Below, piece after piece: positions 3,751 through 63,953 of a DNA stretch of 64,000 bases; the first letter of the stretch is position 1, and every line of letters starts with the position of its first letter. The DNA lies in contig CAYXEO010000002.1 in assembly GCA_964464055.1 (NCBI GenBank), positions 22,145 through 86,144 of the forward strand, written 5' to 3'. The stretch is from an uncultured Methanosarcinales archaeon (lineage in GTDB: Archaea; Nanobdellota; Nanobdellia; Woesearchaeales; GW2011-AR9). A program made the position numbers and the translations under genes. The notes beneath the pieces were generated by a model, which saw only the letters and a list, made by a program, of their open reading frames with translations, was not told the DNA's origin and did not search any database.

Positions 3751-4692
3751 GTGATGATGGTAGGACATAAAGAATTTAAAGAAAAAAAAGAAAAGATATT
3801 TCATGATGGGATAAAACCTAAAAAGAAAAGTTTTTTAGACGGAGAAATTGATATTAAGATTAGGCCGAGAAAAATATTAAAAGCGATGGTTTTGATCGCT
3901 TTATTTGCTTTAGTATTTCAATTAGGTAAATTGAGTACAGATACAACAAGTTGTCCGACAGTTGATTGCCCAGTTATAGCAGAAACCGCAGAAGTTACAC
4001 TTGAATCTGCAGAAGCAACGGAATCTTTTATTACTAAAACGGTAAATTTCTTCTCCGGATTGTTAACCGGTGTTTCGGCAACAGGAAGTGAAATTGAAGT
4101 AGTTGTTTTGAATGGATCTACAAATGAAACAACAGCAAATTTAACAGGACAAACAACAGCTGTTGATACTGAAGAAGAAACAACAGAAATTGAAGAAGAA
4201 ATTGAAGATACCCCAGAAGAAGAAGCTGAAGAAGAAGCTGAAGAAGAAATTGAAGAAGAAGCTGAAGAAGAAATTGAAGAAGAAGCTGAAGAAGAAGCTG
4301 AAGAAGAAACTATAATCACTGAATATAGTGCTGTAACTTTAACAATTTCTGATTTAACTTTGGATTGGAAAACAACGTGGGGAAAAGTAACTCGTTTCAA
4401 ATATACTATTAAAAATTCCGAATCTGGAACAATTTTGCCAAGTTATTTTGTGATGTCTATGGCTGCTTATGGTGAAGATGGAGAAAAAACAGTTGATATC
4501 CCCGCAAATTCACAAACAGTGGAATCATCAAGTACAATCTCTTCTTCGGTAATATTGTCCAGTGGCTATGCTTATAACGAAATTGTTACTGGTGATTTAA
4601 CGGATGTAGCAATTAGTTGGAGAATGTATGATGCTGAAGATACTTTAATTGACACTTATACTGCTTCGTTTAATTTGGATGGTGAAGAGTAG
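3751..4692 (+). CDS. membrane-anchored secreted protein with an (EEEAEEEI)n acidic repeat
   Basis: TM helix LKAMVLIALFALVFQL, an NxT-rich region, and a tandem acidic repeat. The antisense ORF 3918..4400 is an artefact of the repeat. Confidence 0.5.
   Translation: MMMVGHKEFKEKKEKIFHDGIKPKKKSFLDGEIDIKIRPRKILKAMVLIALFALVFQLGKLSTDTTSCPTVDCPVIAETAEVTLESAEATESFITKTVNFFSGLLTGVSATGSEIEVVVLNGSTNETTANLTGQTTAVDTEEETTEIEEEIEDTPEEEAEEEAEEEIEEEAEEEIEEEAEEEAEEETIITEYSAVTLTISDLTLDWKTTWGKVTRFKYTIKNSESGTILPSYFVMSMAAYGEDGEKTVDIPANSQTVESSSTISSSVILSSGYAYNEIVTGDLTDVAISWRMYDAEDTLIDTYTASFNLDGEE
4198..4312 (+). repeat. in-frame tandem repeat (12/24-nt units gaagaagctgaagaagaaattgaa...) encoding the EEEAEEEIEEEA tract
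   Basis: Direct reading shows gaagaagctgaagaagaa(a/g)(t/c)tgaagaagaa iterated about 4.5 times. Confidence 0.75.
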
Positions 4693-22715: not shown

Positions 22716-22970
22716 ACGCTGGAAAAAGAGAAGTTGCTTTAAAAAGATTTTGTTTTGTCATAAGTGAATTGTTGGCAACATAAAGTATTATTTCTTTTGT
22801 CCAAACTTTAATATATCTCTTAAAAAAACATAAAAAGTTAGATTGAAAAAGAGATATGTGCTTTAATTTTCAATAAAACATCCCTATCTAACTATTTATG
22901 TTCGTTTTGTACTCTTTTTGGAAACAAAACCTTTTTAAAAGAGCGAACTTCTTTTTATTCTAGTTGCATG

Positions 22971-23097
22971 GCGATGTAGCTTAACCTGGTCATAGCGCCA
23001 CGCTCATAAACATGAGCTATGAGACATTTTCGTCGATGACAAAAATTGGCTTATTGGGTTACGTGGAGGTTGGGGGCTCAAATCCCCCCATCGCCAT
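22971..23097 (+). tRNA. tRNA-Met/Ile2 (anticodon CAT) with a ~52-nt intron after position 37
   Basis: Acceptor GGCGATG/CATCGCC with discriminator A. Anticodon stem CCACG/CGTGG with loop CTCATAA. T-arm GGGGG-CTCAAAT-CCCCC. Intron ~23010-23061 pairs ATGAG with the loop CTCAT (relaxed BHB). Confidence 0.8.
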
Positions 23098-34232: not shown

Positions 34233-34382
34233 TCTGGTTTTGATGTGAGCAATGTCGAGTTCGCTTTAAGTATGGTTTTAAAGGGATGTGGTTCCCTCCC
34301 ATAAGGAACAAAAACCCCCCTCCCACCATTAATGGTTAAAATGAGGGACGCTCACGAATTGACATAGTTCATTTACCAGGCT

Positions 34383-34408
34383 ACTTACTTACTTACTTAC
34401 TTACTTAC
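34383..34408. repeat. (CTTA)6 microsatellite
   Basis: ctacttacttacttacttacttacttacag, read directly. Confidence 0.85.
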
Positions 34409-37029: not shown

Positions 37030-37143
37030 CGGGCCTGCGAAGATTTGAACTCCGGATCTACAGCTATCTTCAGAGTGATAAAAAATCATTTCTTTTTTCG
37101 CTCTTAGGAGGCTGTCGCCCTATCCAGGCTAGGCTACAGGCCC
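37030..37143 (-). tRNA. tRNA-Arg (anticodon CCT) with a ~39-nt intron after position 37
   Basis: Minus strand. Acceptor GGGCCTG/CAGGCCC with discriminator G. Anticodon stem ACAGC/GCTGT with loop CTCCTAA. T-arm CGGAG-TTCAAAT-CTTCG (one G.U). Intron ~37065-37103. Confidence 0.8.
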
Positions 37144-54389: not shown

Positions 54390-54603
54390 AATATGTTTCG
54401 AAATTATGTGGGGATGCTCTTAAACCTTTGATAAAAACTCCCCTTGTACATTCTTTAAAACATCTTTTAAAACAACATATTAATTGAGTTCATAGCGAAT
54501 TTAATATGTTTCGAAATTATGTGGGGATGCTCTTAAACCTTTGATAAAAACTCCCCTTATACATTCTTTAAAACATCTTTTAAAACAACATATTAATTGA
54601 GTT
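54390..54603. repeat. near-perfect tandem duplication (2 x 101 nt, 12-nt spacer, 1 mismatch) containing an imperfect palindrome ATATGTTTCGAAATTATGTG
   Basis: Copy 1 is 54390-54490 and copy 2 is 54503-54603. The only difference is cccttGtaca versus cccttAtaca. Each unit also has a GGGGA...TCCCC inverted pair and an A/T-rich TATA-like tract. Confidence 0.85.
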
Positions 54604-55277: not shown

Positions 55278-55526
55278 CTAATTCTCAAAAATCCCCCAAA
55301 AAAGAGTCACAAAATCCCAATCGGATTAACTAAAGAAGAAGTGTTCAGACTTTTTGATGTAATTAAGAATTTGAAACACAAATTACTATTAGAACTAATC
55401 TATGTTTTTGGAGTTCGGGCATAAGAAGCAGTGAAAATAAAAATTAAAGATGTCCTAATTAATGAAAAAATTTTGGTCATCCGTTCTGGTAAAGGAAGGA
55501 AAGATCGGAAAACTATTTATCTCTAA
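55278..55526 (+). pseudogene. tyrosine recombinase (integrase) fragment with an internal stop
   Basis: IGLTKEEVFRLFDVIKNLKHKLLLELIYVFGVRA*EAVKIKIKDVLINEKILVIRSGKGRKDRKTIYL* is the start of a Tyr-recombinase catalytic domain (LT.eE...LL..l.y.tGlRisE...L...di......i.i...KtgK.r.vpl). A TAA lies at 55422-55424. The N-terminal core-binding domain and the distal RHRY region are absent. Confidence 0.65.
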
Positions 55527-55639: not shown

Positions 55640-58303
55640 ATGGCAGAAAAAGAAACTAAAAAAACAATTAATTTATATCATACAGTGAAGACCGAGAAAG
55701 TTTTTGGGAGGTTAAAAACTTCTGAAAAAGGGATTACTAACCATGAAGCTGAACAACGGGCACATTTATATGGGTTAAATGAACTTAAAGCAGAGAAAGA
55801 GATACATCCTTTCAAAATTTTTCTGGAACAATTTGCTAGTCCTTTAGTTTGGATTCTTATTTTCGCTTTATTTGTTTCAATCATTTTACATGAATATGTT
55901 GATGCAGTTGTTATTGGGGTTATCATTGTCTTGAATGCAATTCTTGGTTTTGTACAAGAGTTTCGAGCAGAAAAATCTATCGAAGCGTTACAGAAAATGG
56001 CTTCACCGAAAGCGAAAGTTATCCGTAATGGGAAAGAGATTAAAATTGATAGTAAATTTCTTGTTCCTGGTGATTTGGTAATTCTTGAAACTGGTGATAA
56101 AGTTCCTGCCGATGGTAGATTGGTTGAAGTACACAGTTTGGAAACTCAAGAAGGACCATTAACAGGTGAATCTCAACCAGTAACAAAAAAACTTGACCAA
56201 TTACCAGAAAAAACTTCTTTAGCAGATCGTAAAAACATGGTTTATTCTTCTACAATTGTTGCTAATGGTAGAGGCACAGCGGTAATCACTGCAACAGGTA
56301 TGAACACTGAAGTGGGAAAAATTGCTAAACTAATTACGGAATCACACGAAAAATTAACACCTTTACAAAAAAAGTTGCGTGATTTAGGAAAATATCTTAC
56401 TTATGCAGTTATTGTTGTGGCAATTATGGTTTTCTTAGCTGGAATTTTGTCTGGGCAAGAAATGACTACTATGTTCTTAGTAGCGATTGCACTTGCTGTA
56501 GCAGCGATACCAGAAGGGCTCCCAGCAGTAATTACCATCTCTTTAGCATTAGGTGTCCAGCGGATGATCAAGAAAAATGCCCTGGTCCGTAAACTTCCAT
56601 CGGTAGAAACTCTTGGTAGTGTCAATGTAATTTGTACAGATAAAACAGGAACATTAACCCATAACCAAATGACTGTAACAAAAATTTGGGCTAATGATAC
56701 ACTTTACGATGTTACCGGGTCAGGTTACGAACCGAAAGGCACATTTGTAGTAAACAAAAAGTTAGCTAACCCTTTACCAATCCATCAACTTCTAAAAATT
56801 GGGGCGTTATGTAACGATGCCAAACTTGAACATAAAAATAAAAATATCGAAGTGTTCGGTGATCCAACAGAAGCAGCACTAGTTGTCTCTGCACAAAAGG
56901 CTGGGTTCACACCTAAAGAATTAGTTAAAGAAAAGCGAGTGGATGAAATGCCTTTCACATCTGAACGAAAGATGATGACCACTGTACATAAACTCAATTC
57001 TAGTAAAAATACGGTTGCTTACACTAAAGGTGCGCCGGACGTGGTGATTAATTTATGTAACCGAATTTTGATCAACGGAAAAGTTCGTCGTTTAGATAGG
57101 AACAAGAAAAAAGAACTTTTAACCCAGAACGAAAAATTTGCTAAACAAGCCTTACGGGTATTAGGATTTGCTTACCAAGATAAATACACCAAAAAAGGTG
57201 CTGAGAGAGACATGATTTTTGTTGGGTTACAAGCAATGATAGATCCACCCCGGGAAGAAGTCAAAGATGCTATTAAACGGTGCCATGAAGCAGGTATTAA
57301 AGTTATCATGATCACTGGTGACCACTTAACAACTGCGCAAGCGATTGCCAGTCAGTTAGGCATTACCGGAGATGCAGTTTCAGGTCACGACATTGACAAA
57401 CTAAACTTGGAAACTGCTGTTAAAAAGATTGGCATATTTGCTAGAGTTAGTCCGGAACACAAACTAGACATAGTTAAAGCGTTAAAAAAGAAAGGTAACG
57501 TTGTAGCAATGACTGGGGATGGCGTTAATGATGCTCCTGCACTAAAAAAAGCTGACATTGGTATTTCTATGGGTCTTTCTGGTACAGACGTTGCCAAGGA
57601 AGCTTCTGACATGATTTTGACCGATGACAATTTCACTTCTATTGTTAATTCGGTGGAAGAAGGGCGTGGGATTTTTGATAATATAAGAAAATTTGTAAAT
57701 TATATGCTTTCAAGTAATTTGGGAGAGATCACCGCACTTTTCTTTGCTTCACTTTTGAGTCCGATTTTTTTCCCAGAGTTCGCTACTGCTTTACCATTAA
57801 CAGCGATCCAGATTTTATGGATTAACTTGGTCACTGACGGATTACCTGCGACAGCGCTTAGTTTTGATACACATGCAGATGGTATAATGAAACGTAAACC
57901 ACGACCTGCGCGAGAAAGTATTCTTTCTAAAGAACTTAAATGGGACATCATCTTGTTTGGTGTCTTGATTGGTTTTGGTACTTTGGGACTTTTCTGGGCA
58001 TATTTAGGATCAGGTTTGATGAAAGCGCAAACAGTAGCTTTTACCGCGTTGGTAATATTTGAAGTTGCCAGGTTACACATGATCAGACAGGATTATAATC
58101 TGAGCATGTTCAGTAACAAATGGCTTATTGCTGCTATTGTTGGTTCTGTCTTGTTACATGCGACAACTATTTACACACCGTTAGCGAAAGTGTTCCATAC
58201 TGCACCTTTATCATTGATTGATTGGGGAATTATTTGTTTGTGTGCTTTGGGAATGGTTTTGATTAACAAAGTGATTTTGTTTGTTAAAAAACGGATGAAA
58301 TAA
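55640..58303 (+). CDS. P-type cation-transporting ATPase (type II, Ca2+/PMCA-SERCA-like)
   Basis: TGES, DKTGTLT, KGAPD, MITGDH, TGDGVNDAPAL motifs and ~10 TM helices. 887 aa. Confidence 0.9.
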   Translation: MAEKETKKTINLYHTVKTEKVFGRLKTSEKGITNHEAEQRAHLYGLNELKAEKEIHPFKIFLEQFASPLVWILIFALFVSIILHEYVDAVVIGVIIVLNAILGFVQEFRAEKSIEALQKMASPKAKVIRNGKEIKIDSKFLVPGDLVILETGDKVPADGRLVEVHSLETQEGPLTGESQPVTKKLDQLPEKTSLADRKNMVYSSTIVANGRGTAVITATGMNTEVGKIAKLITESHEKLTPLQKKLRDLGKYLTYAVIVVAIMVFLAGILSGQEMTTMFLVAIALAVAAIPEGLPAVITISLALGVQRMIKKNALVRKLPSVETLGSVNVICTDKTGTLTHNQMTVTKIWANDTLYDVTGSGYEPKGTFVVNKKLANPLPIHQLLKIGALCNDAKLEHKNKNIEVFGDPTEAALVVSAQKAGFTPKELVKEKRVDEMPFTSERKMMTTVHKLNSSKNTVAYTKGAPDVVINLCNRILINGKVRRLDRNKKKELLTQNEKFAKQALRVLGFAYQDKYTKKGAERDMIFVGLQAMIDPPREEVKDAIKRCHEAGIKVIMITGDHLTTAQAIASQLGITGDAVSGHDIDKLNLETAVKKIGIFARVSPEHKLDIVKALKKKGNVVAMTGDGVNDAPALKKADIGISMGLSGTDVAKEASDMILTDDNFTSIVNSVEEGRGIFDNIRKFVNYMLSSNLGEITALFFASLLSPIFFPEFATALPLTAIQILWINLVTDGLPATALSFDTHADGIMKRKPRPARESILSKELKWDIILFGVLIGFGTLGLFWAYLGSGLMKAQTVAFTALVIFEVARLHMIRQDYNLSMFSNKWLIAAIVGSVLLHATTIYTPLAKVFHTAPLSLIDWGIICLCALGMVLINKVILFVKKRMK

Positions 58304-58335
58304 TTTATTTATTTATTTATTTATTTATTTATTTT
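58303..58335. repeat. (ATTT)8 microsatellite
   Basis: atttatttatttatttatttatttatttatttttt, directly after the ATPase stop. Confidence 0.85.
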
Positions 58336-58343
58336 TTAAAAAA

Positions 58344-58474
58344 GAAAACAAAGGTTTCCCCCCGCACCCCCCTTCCAAAACCATTTAATTCGCTAATGCT
58401 CATTCAATACTTTGGTTTAAAGAACAAAATAAAGAAGAAACAATTACAATAACACGCGCGCAAGCGCCCGCGCG
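58344..58474. repeat. composite intergenic element R1: gaaaacaaaGgtttCCCCCCGCACCCCCCttcc ... aacaattacaataac ... CGCGCGcaagcgccCGCGCG hairpin
   Basis: Sharply GC-rich islands in an AT-rich background. The opposite strand reads GGGGGGTGCGGGGGG. The CGCGCG/CGCGCG hairpin sits 3 nt beyond the cdc48 stop. Compare R2 at 63451-63534. Confidence 0.8.
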
Positions 58475-58477
58475 ACC

Positions 58478-60826
58478 TTAACCAAAATAGTCTGCTTTTT
58501 CTTCAATTTGTTTGGCTCGGGCAGAACTAAAATAATCTTTCAATTTCAGATAACTTTCTTGCACTTTTTCATCCACACTTGGTCGAACTATTTCCATCGC
58601 TTGATTAAAATGTTCCATGGTAACTTCTTTGGCATCAGTATTTTCTCGTAATGCGCACATGGCAGCTTCTCGACATACACCTTCAATATCGGCACCAACA
58701 TACCTCTCTGTTTTCCTAACTAACTCTGTAACATCAACATCTTTCATTGGTATTTTTTGTAGATAGATTTCAAAAATTTGTTTTCGACCTTTTTCATCTG
58801 CTACTGGTGTATAAATCATCTGGTCAAATCTTCCTTGTCGTAACAGTGCTGGATCAATCATTTTGGGTCTATTTGTTGCGGCAAGTATAATCACATCATT
58901 CATACTTTCTAATCCGTCCATTTCTGTTAATAAAGTATTAATTGCATCCATTCCGCTTGAGTTACTTTTATTCATTTCACTAAATTCTCTACTTGTTGCA
59001 ATAGAATCAAATTCGTCAAAGAAAATAATTGTTGGCGCTGTTTCTCGTGCCTTTCTAAATATATTTTTAATTATTCGTGGAGTTTCATTGACCCATTTAC
59101 TTAACAAACTAGGACCATTGACCAAAATAAAGTTAGCTTCACTTTCTTTGGCCACAGCTTTGGCAAGCAAAGTTTTCCCTGTGCCTGGTGGACCGTACAA
59201 AAGTACTCCTCGTGGTGGCCTAATTCCCAGTTGCTTGAACCTTTCTGGGTTTTTAAGTGGCCATTCCACAGCTTCTTTTAATTTGTTTTTAACATCTTGT
59301 AACCCGCCGATGTTTTCCCAACCAACTTCCGGTGTTTCAACCAAAACTTCCCGCATAGCGCTCGGTCTAACAACTTTAAGTGACTCTTTGAAATCTTTTT
59401 GTGAAACCATTAGTTTGCTTAATATCTCTGGTGGGATAGGTTGCCCCTCTTCAATACCTGCTTTTTTAAGATCGGGCAAAATTCTTCTTAACACTACCAT
59501 AGCCGCTTCTTTGGCCAAAGCGTTCAAATCTGCGCCAACGAAACCGTGGGTAACTTTGGCGATTTCTTTCATGTTAACTTTTTTGTCCAACGGCATGTTC
59601 CGAGTATGAATTTTAAGAACTTCTAACCTGCCTTTTTTGTCTGGAACACCAATTTCTATTTCTCTGTCAAACCTGCCTGGTCTTCTTAGTGCTGGATCCA
59701 AGACGTTTGGCATGTTGGTGGCCGCGATAACAATAACTTTCCCTCTGTTTTTTAGTCCATCCATAAGCCCTAACATTTGGGCAACAACCCTTTTTTCCAC
59801 TTCACCTTTAGTTTCTTCCCTTTTGGTAGCGATCGCATCAATTTCGTCAATGAAAATTATTGATGGTGCATTTTCTTCTGCTTCTTCAAACTTTTTCCGT
59901 AAATTTTTTTCTGATTCGCCGTAGAACTTGCTCATTACTTCCGGACCATTGATTAAAATAAAATGTGAATTTGTTTCACTTGCTACAGCTTTCGCCAATA
60001 AAGTTTTCCCTGTACCTGGCGGACCATGTAACAAGACTCCTTTCGGCGCTTCGATACCTAACTTCTCAAATATTTCTGGGTGTTTAAGTGGTAATTCGAC
60101 CATCTCCCTAACTTTTTTAATTTCGTCTCCTAACCCGCCGATATCTTCATAGTTGATACCTAAACTGATACTTTCTTCTTCTTTCTCTACTGCTTGAGGT
60201 CTGAAATCAATAAATGTGTCCTGGTTAACAACAACAATTTCTTGTTTCGGATCTGTACTAATAACTAACAATTTCAAATCACCGAACCCTAACCCGGCAA
60301 ATTGTTCTTCTAATGCTGAGAAGACATTATCTAACCCTTGGCTTTGGTTTTGTGACCCTTGAGATGGTTGTGGCATCCGCCTTTTAGCTCTCCCGAGCGA
60401 AACCAAATCCCCTTTAACTAACGCTTTACCCATTAACCCCTGCTTAAAAAATACTGGGTGAGCTTTGATCATGATACCTTTTTGTGCAGGCGCGATAGTG
60501 ATTTTCTTCGCCGGTTTAACTTTTGCTTTTTTGACAGTAACAATTTCACCGATAGATGTTTTAGCGTTCCTTCTGATGTTCCCGTCCATTCTAATTATGT
60601 TAAGTCCGATATCTCCCGGGTATGCTCGGTCAACTAAAGCCGCGGTTTTTCTTTCTCCGTTAATTTCTATGAAGTCACCAGGATTAACTTGGATTTGTTT
60701 CATTAAATTAGAATCAATTTTGACGATACCTTTGTTAACATCGTCCTGTACGGCTTCCATAACTTTAAGTTTCAGTTCTGGAGCAGAATTGTTTGTGTTA
60801 TCGTTTGTATTATTATCTATTGACAT
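58478..60826 (-). CDS. cdc48: CDC48/VCP/p97-like AAA+ ATPase (N-domain plus D1 plus D2)
   Basis: Two AAA cassettes, each with [20 protein letters not shown] and a second-region-of-homology/arginine-finger segment. The N-terminal double-psi barrel region. 782 aa. Confidence 0.9.
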
Positions 60827-60967
60827 ATACCTTCACCCGTTGGAGGTGGGAGTAAAGGTTTTATATAAATGTTATGAGTGGTTTGTGCCTGTCTTGTTTT
60901 TGTAAATGTTGTAAATTTGGTGTTTCTTATAGGAATATTCAAATAATATGGCGTTTTATAGCACCAT

Positions 60968-61178
60968 ATGACCACCACGATTCAAGTTAGCCAAGATTTA
61001 CTTTCTGAACTGAAGAGTAGAAAGATGTTTGAACAGGAACCTTATGAAGAAGTTATTTGGTGGAAAATATTTTCGGTTAAGAGTAGGTGATTATAGGGTG
61101 GTTTTGGATATTATTAATGATGTTTTAAGAATTCATGTAATAGAAATAGGACACAGTAAGAAAATATACAAAAAATAA
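60968..61178 (+). pseudogene. RelE/ParE-family toxin gene disrupted by a frameshift
   Basis: Frame 1 (60968-61090) reads MTTTIQVSQDLLSELKSRKMFEQEPYEEVIWWKIFSVKSR*. A shifted frame (61044-61178) reads MKKLFGGKYFRLRVGDYRVVLDIINDVLRIHVIEIGHSKKIYKK*. Spliced together they reproduce the RelE pattern (..L..L.K.......EP...+KL.G...yRLRVGDYRvvy.i.d..l.i..i.HR+.iYk). The frameshift is near 61041-61046. Confidence 0.6.
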
Positions 61179-61179
61179 A

Positions 61180-61722
61180 TTACGCAAGTTCTCTTTTAAG
61201 AATTTTATGCGCATTGTTGATTTCTTTAAATTTGTCTATGTCGCCACCGTCCATGTCTGGGTGATACTTTTTAGCCAAAACTTTGTACTTTTTGTTAATT
61301 TCTGCTAAATCTAATGACTCTTCTTCAATACCTAACAATCTCCTGGCATCTTTTCTTTGTTTTTCTATATCTTTATCTTCCATGAACACTCTTAAAAAAT
61401 CGTCAAGTGACTTTTGTCCAGATACAAACAGGTCAACTTCTTTCTCGATAACTTTTGATGCTACAAATAAGTTTTGTGCATAATTAAATTCTGGGTTTTG
61501 GTATGTGTAAAACATGTTTTGCCAATCGAAAAAGAATTCCACTTTTGCTGGGACTTTTCTGCTTGCTAACTTCGCCAGTTTAATTTCACAATCGTCTTCT
61601 GTTAATCCAATTTTTTTAAGTGTTTTAATAATATCGTTCTTGTACTGTTGAGACCTTCTTAGAAACGAATCTCTGATGGTTGCTAACTTGATTTCGTGCC
61701 CTTTAACTTTTATAATTGTCAT
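61180..61722 (-). CDS. J-domain protein (C-terminal DnaJ J-domain, HPD motif)
   Basis: The C-terminus INKKYKVLAKKYHPDMDGGDIDKFKEINNAHKIL is a canonical J-domain helix II-III with HPD. The N-terminal ~110 aa are of unknown function. Confidence 0.7.
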   Translation of the reverse strand: MTIIKVKGHEIKLATIRDSFLRRSQQYKNDIIKTLKKIGLTEDDCEIKLAKLASRKVPAKVEFFFDWQNMFYTYQNPEFNYAQNLFVASKVIEKEVDLFVSGQKSLDDFLRVFMEDKDIEKQRKDARRLLGIEEESLDLAEINKKYKVLAKKYHPDMDGGDIDKFKEINNAHKILKRELA

Positions 61723-61755
61723 TTTTATTATCTCTAGAATATTCCTATTATTTTC

Positions 61756-63345
61756 CTAATCTCTTCGTTCTTTTCTTTTCCGAGATTTTTTATCCTCTTT
61801 ACTGAACTCGTGATTATGATTTTTTCTTCTTCTTTCACGACGATTTGGTCTTTTCCCTTCTCTGTTACTTGTGCTTCTGTTACCTCGACCATTTCCTCGG
61901 TCATCTCTTCGACCACTTCCTTCTTTTCTATCGTTTCTTCTTCTGCCTCTATCTCCTCGACCACTACCTTTACCACTTCGTCCACGGTTTCTTCTTTTTC
62001 CACCTCTTGGACTTGAGTCAAGGTGACTAACTTCTTTCAAATCTTTATAATTACCTGGGTTAAATTCGTTTTTAAAAACGTACTTAAGAATTGCAGAAAC
62101 CACTTCAATAGGATCTTGGTGATCAAGTAACTCTTCCGCTAACGGAGTAAACCTTTGCAACTTTTTCTTCTCAATGATGTTCATCACGGTCAGTTGTAAC
62201 TTATTTTTTTTAAGTTCGATAAGTTCTTTCACGGATGGTAATTTTTGTTTTTCAATCTTGATTTTGGATATTTTTTCAATGAACCGTAATTTCCTTACTT
62301 CGCTAGGCATTACAAAAGTAATTGCTGTACCTTCTTTCCCTGCTCGACCAGTTCTACCAATTCTGTGTGTGTAAGCTTCTGGACTTTGTGGTACTGAGAA
62401 ATTGATTACATGCGTTAAATTGTTTACATCAATACCTCTGGCAGCAACATCTGTAGCAACCAAAATGTTAATCGTACCTGTTCTAAACAGTTTCAATATT
62501 TTTTCTCTTTGTGCTTGACTAATATCACCATGTAACGCAGTAGCATTGTACCCTTTTTCAGCTAAATGTTGTGCAGTGGAGTCCACCATATGTTTAGTGT
62601 TACAAAATACAATCCCATGAAAATCGTGGTTCAAATCAATGATCCTTTTTAACCCTTCAACCCTATCTTTGGCAGCGATACTGTAACATATTTGTTTAAT
62701 TAAATCTGTACTTTGATGAGTTTGTTGAATCTCAATCATTTTGTATTCACCCATGAACTTTTTAGCAATAGCAAGAATTTGTCTGGGCATTGTTGCTGAG
62801 AATAATAGCATCTTTTTGTAACTGTTAGTTTCACTTAATATTTGTTTGATATCATCAACGAAACCCATGTTTAACATTTCGTCAGCTTCATCAAGTACCA
62901 TGAATTGGATCTTGTCCAACATTAAATATCTTCTGTTCATTAAATCCATAACTCTGCCCGGTGTTCCTACAACAATATCAACACCTTTTCTCAGTTGACT
63001 CATTTGTTCCCTGATATTTGAACCACCATAAACTGCTAATATATTAAGACGCTTATCACCTTTCATCGATTCAATATCTTTACTAACTTGGATAGCTAAT
63101 TCTCTGGTTGGTGTTAAAACGATTGCTTCAACTGTTCTAGAATTCCCTTTCAATTTTTCAATTATCGGGATAGCAAAACTTGCAGTTTTCCCTGTCCCTG
63201 TCTGTGAATGTCCTACAACATCATATTGTGAACTAAGTAGTAAAGGAATAGCTTCCTTTTGAACTAGTGTTGGCGCTTCAAACCCTTTCTTTTTAAGAGT
63301 TTTAAGCATGTTTTCTGATAATCCTAATTTTTTAAATTCTTCCAT
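61756..63345 (-). CDS. DEAD-box ATP-dependent RNA helicase with an Arg/Gly-rich C-terminal tail
   Basis: Q motif, GSGKT-type Walker A (GTGKT), DEAD, SAT, HRIGRTGRAG. The RG-rich tail reads RGGKRRNRGRSGKGSGRGDRGRRRNDRKEG... Confidence 0.9.
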   Translation of the reverse strand: MEEFKKLGLSENMLKTLKKKGFEAPTLVQKEAIPLLLSSQYDVVGHSQTGTGKTASFAIPIIEKLKGNSRTVEAIVLTPTRELAIQVSKDIESMKGDKRLNILAVYGGSNIREQMSQLRKGVDIVVGTPGRVMDLMNRRYLMLDKIQFMVLDEADEMLNMGFVDDIKQILSETNSYKKMLLFSATMPRQILAIAKKFMGEYKMIEIQQTHQSTDLIKQICYSIAAKDRVEGLKRIIDLNHDFHGIVFCNTKHMVDSTAQHLAEKGYNATALHGDISQAQREKILKLFRTGTINILVATDVAARGIDVNNLTHVINFSVPQSPEAYTHRIGRTGRAGKEGTAITFVMPSEVRKLRFIEKISKIKIEKQKLPSVKELIELKKNKLQLTVMNIIEKKKLQRFTPLAEELLDHQDPIEVVSAILKYVFKNEFNPGNYKDLKEVSHLDSSPRGGKRRNRGRSGKGSGRGDRGRRRNDRKEGSGRRDDRGNGRGNRSTSNREGKRPNRRERRRKNHNHEFSKEDKKSRKRKERRD

Positions 63346-63450
63346 TTTTCATTATTAATTGGTGGTTACTAATTATTTAAAGCCACCCCTTATAAAGCTA
63401 TGGGGTGTTTTTGTGTTGAAAATTGACAAATTACTAACAAACAAAAAAAA

Positions 63451-63534
63451 GAAAACAAAAGTTTCCCCCCGCACCCCCCTTCAAAAATAAAGAAAAAACA
63501 ATTATAGAAACCCGCGCGCGCCAGCGCTCGCGCG
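63451..63534. repeat. composite intergenic element R2: gaaaacaaaAgtttCCCCCCGCACCCCCCttc ... aacaattatagaaac ... CGCGCGCGccagcgctCGCGCG hairpin
   Basis: Same motif order and orientation as R1 with a shorter spacer (33 versus 82 nt). An additional TTCGCGCGAA palindrome lies at 63578-63587. Confidence 0.8.
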
Positions 63535-63665
63535 AAACAAACAAATCTTGAAACCACTTGAATCTGGACACTTTTGGTTCGCGCGAAATTATTAAGAGGT
63601 GAAAAGTGAAGGTTACTATCAACTTTCCCTATTAAATCCCTCCTAACCATTATTTTTCGAACTTT

Positions 63666-63953
63666 TCACCTCGGAATAATTTCGTAAACATTATTACCAA
63701 TTTTCTCTAACCCAAACTTTGACAAATCCTGCAAAAAATTATTCTGTTCCTTTTTCCAACTATAATTAGCTTTATCGGAACAGAATAATTTTCCGTCAGG
63801 AACCCAGTAAGATGCATCAAGAATTAATAAGTTACCAGGTTGCATGTTGCGAGTCAAATTGTCAACAGCAGTTTTACAACCGTACAAATTGAATCTTGGT
63901 AACAAATTGAGACAATAAATAGCGTCAAAATTTTCTTGCACAGGGCTTTTCAA
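63666..63953 (-). CDS. hypothetical protein (95 aa)
   Basis: ORF from the track at the window edge, with no recognisable motif. Confidence 0.25.
   Translation of the reverse strand: MKSPVQENFDAIYCLNLLPRFNLYGCKTAVDNLTRNMQPGNLLILDASYWVPDGKLFCSDKANYSWKKEQNNFLQDLSKFGLEKIGNNVYEIIPR

Follow-up and report, generated by a model that had tools for sequence, protein, structure and literature searches.

Within a 64-kb stretch of archaeal DNA (contig CAYXEO010000002.1, positions 22,145 to 86,144; hereafter the window), two short direct repeats on either side of a segment of about 5 kb that carries cdc48 raise the question of whether such sequences are borders of a mobile segment, structured DNA repeats, genes for small RNAs, or signals at which transcripts end. 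The two copies, R1 (58338-58474) and R2 (63443-63534), form GC-rich islands in a window of ~33% GC. Our analysis points to a lineage-restricted composite terminator or insulator, which would act on the sense strand at gene 3' ends, a reading to which we would give a probability of roughly 45% from comparison of sequences. The informative strand is the minus strand of the window, sense to cdc48 and to the CheR-like methyltransferase gene, and the element is described on that strand.

The earlier note on this DNA had described direct composite repeats made of a C-rich motif and a CGCGCG hairpin, and an ungapped repeat search and a gapped alignment confirmed their positions, order and orientation. 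Two modules are common to R1 and R2 in identical order and orientation: a block of 43 nt with 95% identity (58338-58380 vs. 63445-63487), which includes CCCCCCGCACCCCCC, and a block of 49 nt with 78% identity (58426-58474 vs. 63484-63532), which includes the CGCGCG hairpin. In the gapped alignment R1 carries a 49-nt insertion between these blocks that is found neither in R2 nor in either of the two copies of a related contig (L120, see below); the module is ~95 nt long, and 145 nt in R1. The 15-mer of the C-motif occurs exactly twice in the window, even with three mismatches allowed (0.14 expected), CGCGCG-N4-20-CGCGCG occurs only in R1 and R2 (0 expected), and all six CGCGCG hexamers fall inside or beside the two repeats (0.47 expected). 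A scan for mirror repeats (arm ≥8, spacer ≤8) found R1 and R2 to be the sole GC-rich homopurine/homopyrimidine perfect mirror repeats in the 64 kb, with 0 in 20 shuffles. Given this scarcity with respect to expectation and shuffles, chance does not explain the pair.

Copies were counted over ~81 kb of the source genome (the window, 10 kb upstream and 6.8 kb downstream). Two were present and no third one was found in the upstream or downstream flank, and the many dispersed copies that the earlier note had considered were therefore not seen in that span. Scans of public genomes and metagenomes with a 20-mer of the element retrieved no additional AT-rich archaeal copy, but the metagenome collection does not hold the source contig, so that copy number is little informed by this result. 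Among viral contigs, 20-mer matches were GC-rich chance matches only, and with the hairpin pattern GC-rich phages drowned out any other signal. A pseudo-protein query, built by concatenating the element's six-frame translations so as to catch spurious open reading frames (ORFs) over other copies, gave no matches, and the literal element sequences led to nothing relevant in the literature. The source contig recurs in several marine metagenome assemblies, and the element is identical across three population contigs while the neighboring (TTTA)n microsatellite differs. This microsatellite (window 58303-58338, between the ATPase stop and R1) has approximately nine units in the window and in L002 and six units more (24 nt longer) in L001 and L004, and assembly L003 ends within it.

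The site at 34315-34330, proposed previously as a weaker relative, has neither the mirror repeat nor the CG hairpin and falls outside the element family. It is contained in a GC-richer intergenic island of 130 nt (window 34236-34408), flanked by GTGAGC...GCTCAC and followed by a (TTAC)6 microsatellite; the fold of this island is not significant, it has no Rfam match, and it is unrelated to the R1/R2 element.

In all four copies (R1, R2 and the two of L120) the sense strand runs from the stop codon through a CG hairpin, at least two U4+ tracts and G6-N3(7)-G6 to at least two further U4+ tracts. R1 and R2 share a layout in which the stop is followed by the hairpin (6-bp GC stem), by a U-rich linker containing a TATA-like CTATAAT, by GAAGGGGGG-TGC-GGGGGGAAAC, and by (C/T)TTTGTTTTCTTTTTT. 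Their parts are as follows:

58455..58474, minus strand, R1 CG-rich hairpin: CGCGCGGGCGCTTGCGCGCG, with a 6-bp GC stem and an 8-nt loop, beginning 3 nt past the cdc48 stop (58478-58480).
58373..58454, minus strand, R1 U-rich linker: TATA-like TTGTAATTG and the 49-nt insertion, with two T4 tracts upstream of the core.
58355..58376, minus strand, R1 purine mirror-repeat core: GGAAGGGGGG-TGC-GGGGGGAAA (plus strand TTTCCCCCCGCACCCCCCTTCC), G4Hunter 2.24.
58338..58354, minus strand, R1 U-tract tail: CCTTTGTTTTCTTTTTT, with T4 and T6 tracts, a candidate termination point for cdc48 transcripts.
63513..63534, minus strand, R2 CG-rich hairpin: CGCGCGAGCGCTGGCGCGCGCG, 131 nt past the stop of the CheR-like methyltransferase gene (63666-63668).
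63482..63512, minus strand, R2 U-rich linker: GGTTTCTATAATTGTTTTTTCTTTATTTTTG, with T6 and T5 tracts and a TATA-like CTATAAT.
63462..63481, minus strand, R2 purine mirror-repeat core: AAGGGGGG-TGC-GGGGGGAAA, G4Hunter 1.96.
63443..63461, minus strand, R2 U-tract tail: CTTTTGTTTTCTTTTTTTT, with T4, T4 and T8 tracts and the helicase promoter region ~45 nt downstream.

Both placements that had been proposed, the R1 hairpin abutting the cdc48 stop and R2 lying a short distance upstream of the helicase start (100-189 nt ahead of its ATG), were recovered.

Some features around R2 are not part of the shared layout. A TTCGCGCGAA palindrome at 63578-63587 is missing from the other three copies, and a 12-nt inverted repeat (GAGGTGAAAAGT / ACTTTTCACCTC, at 63596-63607 / 63661-63672), also specific to R2, has arms that span the stop codon of the CheR-like gene. 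The likely TATA box of the helicase gene (CTTTATAA), in the region 63380-63412 of the minus strand, is ~40 nt ahead of the ATG, where it occupies the loop between the arms of an inverted repeat (CACCCC...GGGGTG).

The evolutionary behavior of the element was assessed by comparison with relatives. The window, with its ~33% GC, its intron-containing tRNA genes and a cdc48 whose best homologs carry the names Woesearchaeota or Nanoarchaeota in their records, comes from a marine archaeon of Woesearchaeota type (DPANN). Only one close relative of cdc48 is on record, 84% identical and located on a 6.3-kb TARA marine contig (L120), which has the composite element twice, each time in the orientation of its genes. 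The upstream copy begins 26 nt past the stop of a 148-aa gene, ortholog of a 149-aa gene of the source (87% identity), and ends right at the cdc48 promoter, while the downstream copy begins 1 nt past the cdc48 stop and, like R1, faces a convergent P-type ATPase gene. Source and L120 thus each keep one copy upstream and one copy downstream of a unit ending in cdc48. The alignment of the four copies showed conservation of the hairpin, of a TGTTTCTATAAT-like linker, of the G6-N3-G6 core and of an AAAC-T-run tail, with sharp boundaries (at the CG hairpin and where the T-run ends) and unrelated flanks. Copies from the same genome were most alike, R1 and R2 sharing the TGC spacer and a GCT(T/G)GC loop and the L120 pair a GCAAGC loop; this greater likeness within a genome than between positional counterparts indicates that the copies were duplicated recently or evolve in concert. 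In the 57 kb covered by the cdc48 loci of four other Woesearchaeota there is no G5+-N-G5+ site and no CGCGCG, and one of these loci, syntenic for cdc48, exchanger, ATPase and methyltransferase genes at 77% identity, has only a plain T-rich stretch after cdc48. Because of its sharp boundaries, its occurrence in at least three flanking contexts, the likeness of copies within a genome and its absence from a syntenic relative, the module behaves as a repeat and not as an ancient part of these genes, and it is lineage-restricted and of low copy number in the sequence examined.

The placement of the copies and their U-tracts carry the terminator or insulator reading. All four are preceded by a co-oriented gene (cdc48 in two cases, the 148-aa gene in a third and the CheR-like gene in the fourth), and on the gene-sense strand every copy has at least two T4+ tracts before the core and at least two after it, the arrangement looked for in archaeal U-tract terminators. 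In Methanococcus maripaludis, at least two U4 tracts mark high-efficiency terminators and bind aCPSF1, and a hairpin is unnecessary (PMC8716108). The element resembles the terminators described in that work in lying directly downstream of co-oriented genes with at least two U4+ tracts on the sense strand, and by this analogy the U-tracts are its strongest functional lead. Known archaeal terminators, as mapped by Term-seq in Methanococcus, Sulfolobus and Haloferax, do not need a hairpin and have no conserved sequence, whereas the element is conserved and repeated, and has a CG hairpin as well as G6-N3-G6 between two clusters of U-tracts. In a simple terminator scan of the minus strand the R1 CG hairpin with its T-rich tail was picked up, as was GCGGGGGGAAACCTTTGT plus TTTCTTTTTT. 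An intergenic regulatory or terminator-like element, one of the possibilities raised at the outset, accordingly fits the four downstream positions and the U4+ tracts better than mobile borders do.

We infer a mechanism in which the clusters of U-tracts would be the actual termination signals, intrinsic or via aCPSF1/FttA as in other archaea, and in which the CG hairpin, the G-rich core or both could add pausing, a roadblock or protection of the 3' end. This accessory action might be that of an RNA structure, in which the G-runs form G-U pairs with the following U-tract, or that of non-B DNA, either H-DNA or a two-tetrad G-quadruplex, and the outcome would be the insulation of cdc48 and of downstream promoters from read-through. 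Hairpin and purine core would then be accessory structure-forming parts, either inherited from a repeat of the BoxC/PIT/rPQS kind or convergent with it. The sequences directly show the anatomy of the element, its conservation, its location with respect to genes and its restriction to one lineage, while its transcription, termination at it and any non-B structure are inferred.

In favor of such a role, RNAalifold predicted two hairpins on the sense strand, the second built of G-U pairs between the G-runs and the following U-tract, which are impossible on the opposite strand. Several observations weigh against it. Compensatory changes were found in none of the 22 predicted pairs of both hairpins in the four-copy alignment (the CG hairpin is kept as sequence in all four copies, with no compensatory changes), and single-sequence folding z-scores were modest (-2.2 and -2.7), so that the RNA structure of the element is a prediction. 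The module is present at only two of the ~60 genes of the window and plain T-runs evidently serve the remainder, which implies that hairpin and G-core need some other reason. Orientation is uninformative for two of the four copies, which are flanked by convergent genes, and the two informative ones may be orthologous, which reduces the effective sample to 1-2. The hairpin begins anywhere from 1 to 131 nt past the stop codon. Finally, in the summary that PMC4666352 gives of Hoyne and Maher (2002), the related BoxC/PIT repeats had no promoter or terminator activity.

A different role as RNA was also weighed, in which the copies are independent genes for small noncoding RNAs or give rise to processed RNAs, derived from 3' untranslated regions, that act in trans; either a G-rich minus-strand RNA ending at the U-tract or a C-rich plus-strand antisense RNA could be envisaged. 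GC-rich islands conserved between species and invariant in the population, in a genome of 33% GC, would suit such genes, the U-tract would provide a defined 3' end, and in three of the copies a TATA-like TTTCTATAATT precedes the G-core by ~25-30 nt. However, a promoter upstream of the hairpin is not conserved across the four copies, the 49-nt insertion of R1 parts the TATA-like box from the G-core, and a transcript begun at the G-core would be only ~30 nt long. Covariation was likewise lacking, no tRNA-like feature was detected (ARAGORN found nothing at R1 or R2), and the search of the window and both elements against Rfam 15 gave no match at the gathering threshold and only generic hairpin noise at E values up to 10. 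On this evidence we regard small RNA genes as improbable.

The G-rich core has the sequence form by which H-DNA is defined, a homopurine mirror repeat whose arms are separated by a short spacer: the cores at 58356 and 63463 have perfect mirror arms of 8 nt (TTCCCCCC) around a spacer of 3 nt. Among the four copies the core reads G6-TGC-G6, G6-CGC-G6 or G6AG-TGC-GAG6, with arms extending into GAA/AAA. In the copy with the last form (L120b, G6-AG-TGC-GA-G6) matched changes on either side of the spacer keep the mirror symmetry, a hint, from a single case, of possible selection on that symmetry. Extended mirror symmetry of the U-rich flanks was significant in one copy only (p = 0.002) and indistinguishable from a direct repeat of T-tracts, and was dropped.

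An intramolecular G-quadruplex (G4) assembled from four G-tracts had been suggested for this strand. The four tracts are present, but as GG only: GG x4 (two-tetrad) is the sole G4 pattern matched in the copies (G4Hunter 1.9-2.4), while the canonical three-tetrad pattern (four runs of G3+, loops of 1-7 nt) was found in none of the four. As judged from these patterns, a canonical three-tetrad G4 is excluded, and a two-tetrad or bimolecular G4, or H-DNA, is possible. Support for the G-quadruplex idea is weak, and a homopurine mirror repeat of the H-DNA/triplex type is a better description of the G-rich stretch.

Sequences closely similar to this core were found outside the Archaea. The scan of public genomes and metagenomes with TTTCCCCCCGCACCCCCCTT retrieved ~45 bacterial contigs from diverse lineages, with names including Syntrophaceae, Mailhella, Desulfovibrio, Clostridia and Planctomycetota, among others. 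In these contigs the 20-mer is the 3' arm and tail of a long hairpin, composed of tGCGGGGGGAAAC, a covarying AT-rich top and GTTTCCCCCCGC-A-CCCCCCTTC(C)AAAAACT. This widespread hairpin family was noted at the bacterial loci L006-L010, L020, L021, L025, L026, L028, L036-L046, L051, L055, L060, L063, L064, L074, L086, L088, L090, L093, L103, L105, L106, L112 and L118. Identity with the archaeal core extends over 20-34 nt (GAAGGGGGGTGCGGGGGGAAAC plus the T-run), and R2 is identical to one bacterial locus over 34 nt. In 24 of 25 clear cases the bacterial motif lies 0-60 nt past the end of a co-oriented ORF, often with a polypurine tract ahead, and the loci have no conserved neighboring gene and no Rfam match (19 loci, gathering and permissive thresholds). 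A BLAST search of plasmids with the bacterial consensus gave no match, possibly because of the low-complexity filter. A diverged second copy is sometimes present nearby, inverted, and in diverged copies the purine arm, the pyrimidine arm and the tail agree three-way (e.g., GAGAGGGGAAAC / GTTTCCCCTCTC / CTCTCCCCTTT), with tails in mirror vs. direct arrangement at ~11:2, the query family excluded.

By its sequence this bacterial family fits the BoxC/PIT/TM intrastrand-triplex architecture, with a putative triplex form GCGGGGGGAAAC-loop-GTTTCCCCCCGCACCCCCCTT. BoxC/PIT/TM motifs are intergenic and highly conserved, have a second loop of 3 nt, occur sometimes in inverted pairs, and are tied to rearranged loci (PMC4666352); the bacterial family differs from the published TM_ECO of E. 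coli in its strong stop-codon-proximal, strand-specific placement. The archaeal element shares with BoxC/PIT/TM_ECO (Hoyne and Maher 2000, 2002; Holder et al. 2015, PMC4666352) the intergenic location, the conservation, mirror-related G-blocks across a 3-nt loop, and an association with rearranged loci. When the three blocks of a triplex were looked for, the bacterial relatives had them all, whereas the archaeal copies had the two purine blocks, mirror-related across a loop of ~3 nt, and in none of the four was there a C-rich/complementary block; without this pyrimidine stem no intrastrand triplex would form, and the element has in addition the CG hairpin and the U-tracts, and is of low copy number. 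Beyond the 20-mer, R1 showed suggestive similarity to the flanks of the bacterial family (p = 1.6e-4), R2 weak similarity (0.017) and one L120 copy (L120a) none (0.08). As this similarity is suggestive for R1 only, common descent and convergence are both possible.

The 20-mer or its core also occurs in two other settings. In a Propionibacterium metagenome-assembled genome (L012, ~4003-4022) the 20-mer lies in an apparent spacer of a type I-E-like CRISPR array, with repeats ...AAACCCCGCGCAAGCGGGGATGATCCC, and this spacer may target DNA bearing such a motif. In three marine contigs of ~40% GC (L101, L104 and L110) the core, with AAAAGTTT / TTTCAAAA flanks, is inside a conserved ORF of ~40 codons on the G-strand (...DFERGVRGE..., with GGAGGTG ahead), a context unlike both the bacterial hairpins and the archaeal element.

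These resemblances bring in the most substantial competitor of the terminator, a structural repeat acting at the DNA level, of the BoxC/PIT/rPQS kind, which spreads intergenically with no dedicated role in expression and is a hotspot of rearrangement. Its non-B-prone parts could be the (CG)3 palindrome and the homopurine mirror repeat, forming H-DNA, two-tetrad or intermolecular G4, or Z-DNA. The core is indeed a perfect purine mirror repeat with a 3-nt spacer, a hallmark of H-DNA (PMC4666352), its symmetry is kept by the matched changes in L120b, and it equals the Hoogsteen and purine blocks of the bacterial intrastrand-triplex family, identical over 20-34 nt. Presence and absence among relatives and sharp boundaries are in line with a repeat, and motifs of this type are tied to rearrangement of loci (PMC4666352), gene content here differing between source and L120 on both sides of the upstream copy. 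The L120 comparison provides a natural case of gene gain or loss on both sides of a repeat, in agreement with the published link between motif and instability. On the other hand, the third (pyrimidine) block of an intrastrand triplex is missing from all four archaeal copies, arms of 8-10 nt are short for H-DNA, C+.G-C triads require low pH, and copy number is very low in the sequence examined. Moreover, what is conserved includes the clusters of U-tracts, found in every copy on the gene-sense strand, and this is not what a strand-neutral repeat would predict. We consider a purely DNA-level repeat unlikely, though it deserves serious attention.

Archaeal precedents for such repeats exist. Intergenic G-run repeats, mostly at gene ends, have been described as rPQS with C-tract repeats in Methanomicrobiaceae and as two-run GnNiGn repeats in three other archaeal genomes (PMC8044849). 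Like the element, rPQS are archaeal and intergenic, with G-runs around a short loop that is sometimes GCA, and they are placed between tail-to-tail genes in 50% of cases and head-to-tail in 39%, often near DEAD-box helicase genes (PMC8044849). They differ in having four runs of G3-5, an adjacent C3TC3 tract, tens to hundreds of copies and either orientation, whereas the element has two G6 runs without a C-tract, was seen in two copies and is consistently oriented. Likeness to REP/BIME (repetitive extragenic palindromes and their composites) is seen in the short structured repeats at gene 3' ends, discrete boundaries, presence and absence, and concerted evolution within a genome; unlike these, the element had no terminal inverted repeats, target-site duplication or RAYT-type transposase in the sequence examined, nor was a copy number as high as is typical of REPs seen there. 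The ends of the four copies (CGCGCG... / ...CTTTTTT) are not inverted repeats and no duplicated target was found in the flanks, which separates them from miniature inverted-repeat transposable elements as well as from REP. Other identities were rejected since their defining features were absent from the archaeal copies: a replication origin (ORB) element, split tRNA halves, C/D or H/ACA sRNA, a CRISPR repeat, an IS200/IS605 end or PATE, and a mimic of a tRNA-acceptor minihelix.

In a far more speculative extension, for which we see very little likelihood, G6-N3-G6 would be a 'two-thirds triplex' module found across domains, related by transfer or convergence to the GCGGGGGGAAAC...GTTTCCCCCCGC-A-CCCCCCTT family, with flanking copies acting jointly. 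If true, H-DNA might form at each site, or a four-run G-quadruplex or triplex between copies might loop out the cdc48 unit, so that DNA topology or stress would be coupled to how a proteostasis cluster (cdc48, J-domain protein, DEAD-box helicase) is expressed or rearranged.

To our knowledge, almost nothing is known about how transcripts end and neighboring genes are insulated in the compact genomes of DPANN archaea. A conserved, repeated terminator cassette with a structured core, the reading that we prefer for R1 and R2, would be a concrete and testable example from this group. The element also brings a DPANN lineage into the little-understood class of triplex- or G4-prone intergenic repeats, represented by BoxC/PIT in bacteria and rPQS in methanogens, in a form with the third strand missing, which raises the question of whether function resides in the purine mirror repeat and not in an intrastrand triplex. 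The finding would be modest if the element were only a lineage-specific terminator repeat.

The remaining possibility is that from which the question arose, namely that an integrated 5-kb mobile element, carrying cdc48 together with genes for a RelE toxin, a J-domain protein and a helicase, has the two repeats as its attL/attR-like borders or as scars of recombination. The gene annotations on which it was built were confirmed:

58478..60826, minus strand: cdc48 (782 aa), whose 3' end carries the element in source and L120.
~60950-61178, plus strand: C-terminal fragment of a ParE/RelE protein, frame disrupted.
61180-61722, minus strand: J-domain protein.
61756-63345, minus strand: DEAD-box helicase.
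55341-55526, plus strand: tyrosine-recombinase remnant of ~60 aa, stop-interrupted (PF00589 E = 7e-4, below the curated cut-off).

The last of these corresponds to the integrase fragment reported ~3 kb from the block; the remnant exists, 2.8 kb outside the block, but its PF00589 match is weak and under the curated cut-off. It is located in a spacer of 365 nt between the methyltransferase and ATPase genes, which in the syntenic relative (L251) measures 86 nt. In the source, the 149-aa gene is followed by a plain T-rich stretch and then by the NUDIX, phosphodiesterase and CheR-like genes ahead of R2, the CheR-like gene running past the end of the window, while the helicase, J-domain and RelE-fragment genes are placed between R2 and the cdc48 promoter (ACATTTATATA), which is conserved in all relatives.

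In favor of att-like borders, the repeats are direct, with 95% identity over 43 nt, the 5-kb block encloses a toxin pseudogene and has the recombinase remnant outside it, and the helicase, DnaJ and RelE genes are missing from the closest relative. L120, however, lacks those genes and still has both copies, which bracket cdc48 alone, and no empty single-copy site was found; as both copies are kept without the helicase, J-domain and RelE genes, the repeats are not att-type ends of the 5-kb block. Variable genes were gained or lost between one repeat and the cdc48 promoter, not jointly with the repeats, and in relatives at 77% identity cdc48 is present with repeats and block genes both absent. 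In addition, cdc48 is a core gene, neither the block nor its edge holds an intact mobility gene, no tRNA target or viral-contig match in an AT-rich context was found, and, in contrast to clean att duplications, the copies of each genome are composite, have diverged and differ by an internal indel. A mobile or recombined segment delimited by R1 and R2 is thus hardly credible. The expectation that the locus would be indel-variable held between species, the repeats not being the ends of the unit that varies.

Compared with L120, the source has three extra gene blocks within 10 kb (L001 1533-3998, 4666-7161 and 7482-9783), consisting of an 821-aa ORF without Pfam match, the NUDIX/phosphodiesterase/CheR-like genes and the helicase/J-domain/RelE-fragment genes, an unusually indel-rich neighborhood. 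Elsewhere in the window, a 113-nt unit is repeated in tandem at 54390-54603 (1.9 copies, 99% identical), in the intergenic region between a 155-aa ORF without Pfam match and the methyltransferase gene. Finally, two tRNA genes at 22970-23096 (127 nt) and 37030-37143 (114 nt) were detected by Rfam and not by ARAGORN, with lengths that are consistent with archaeal introns.

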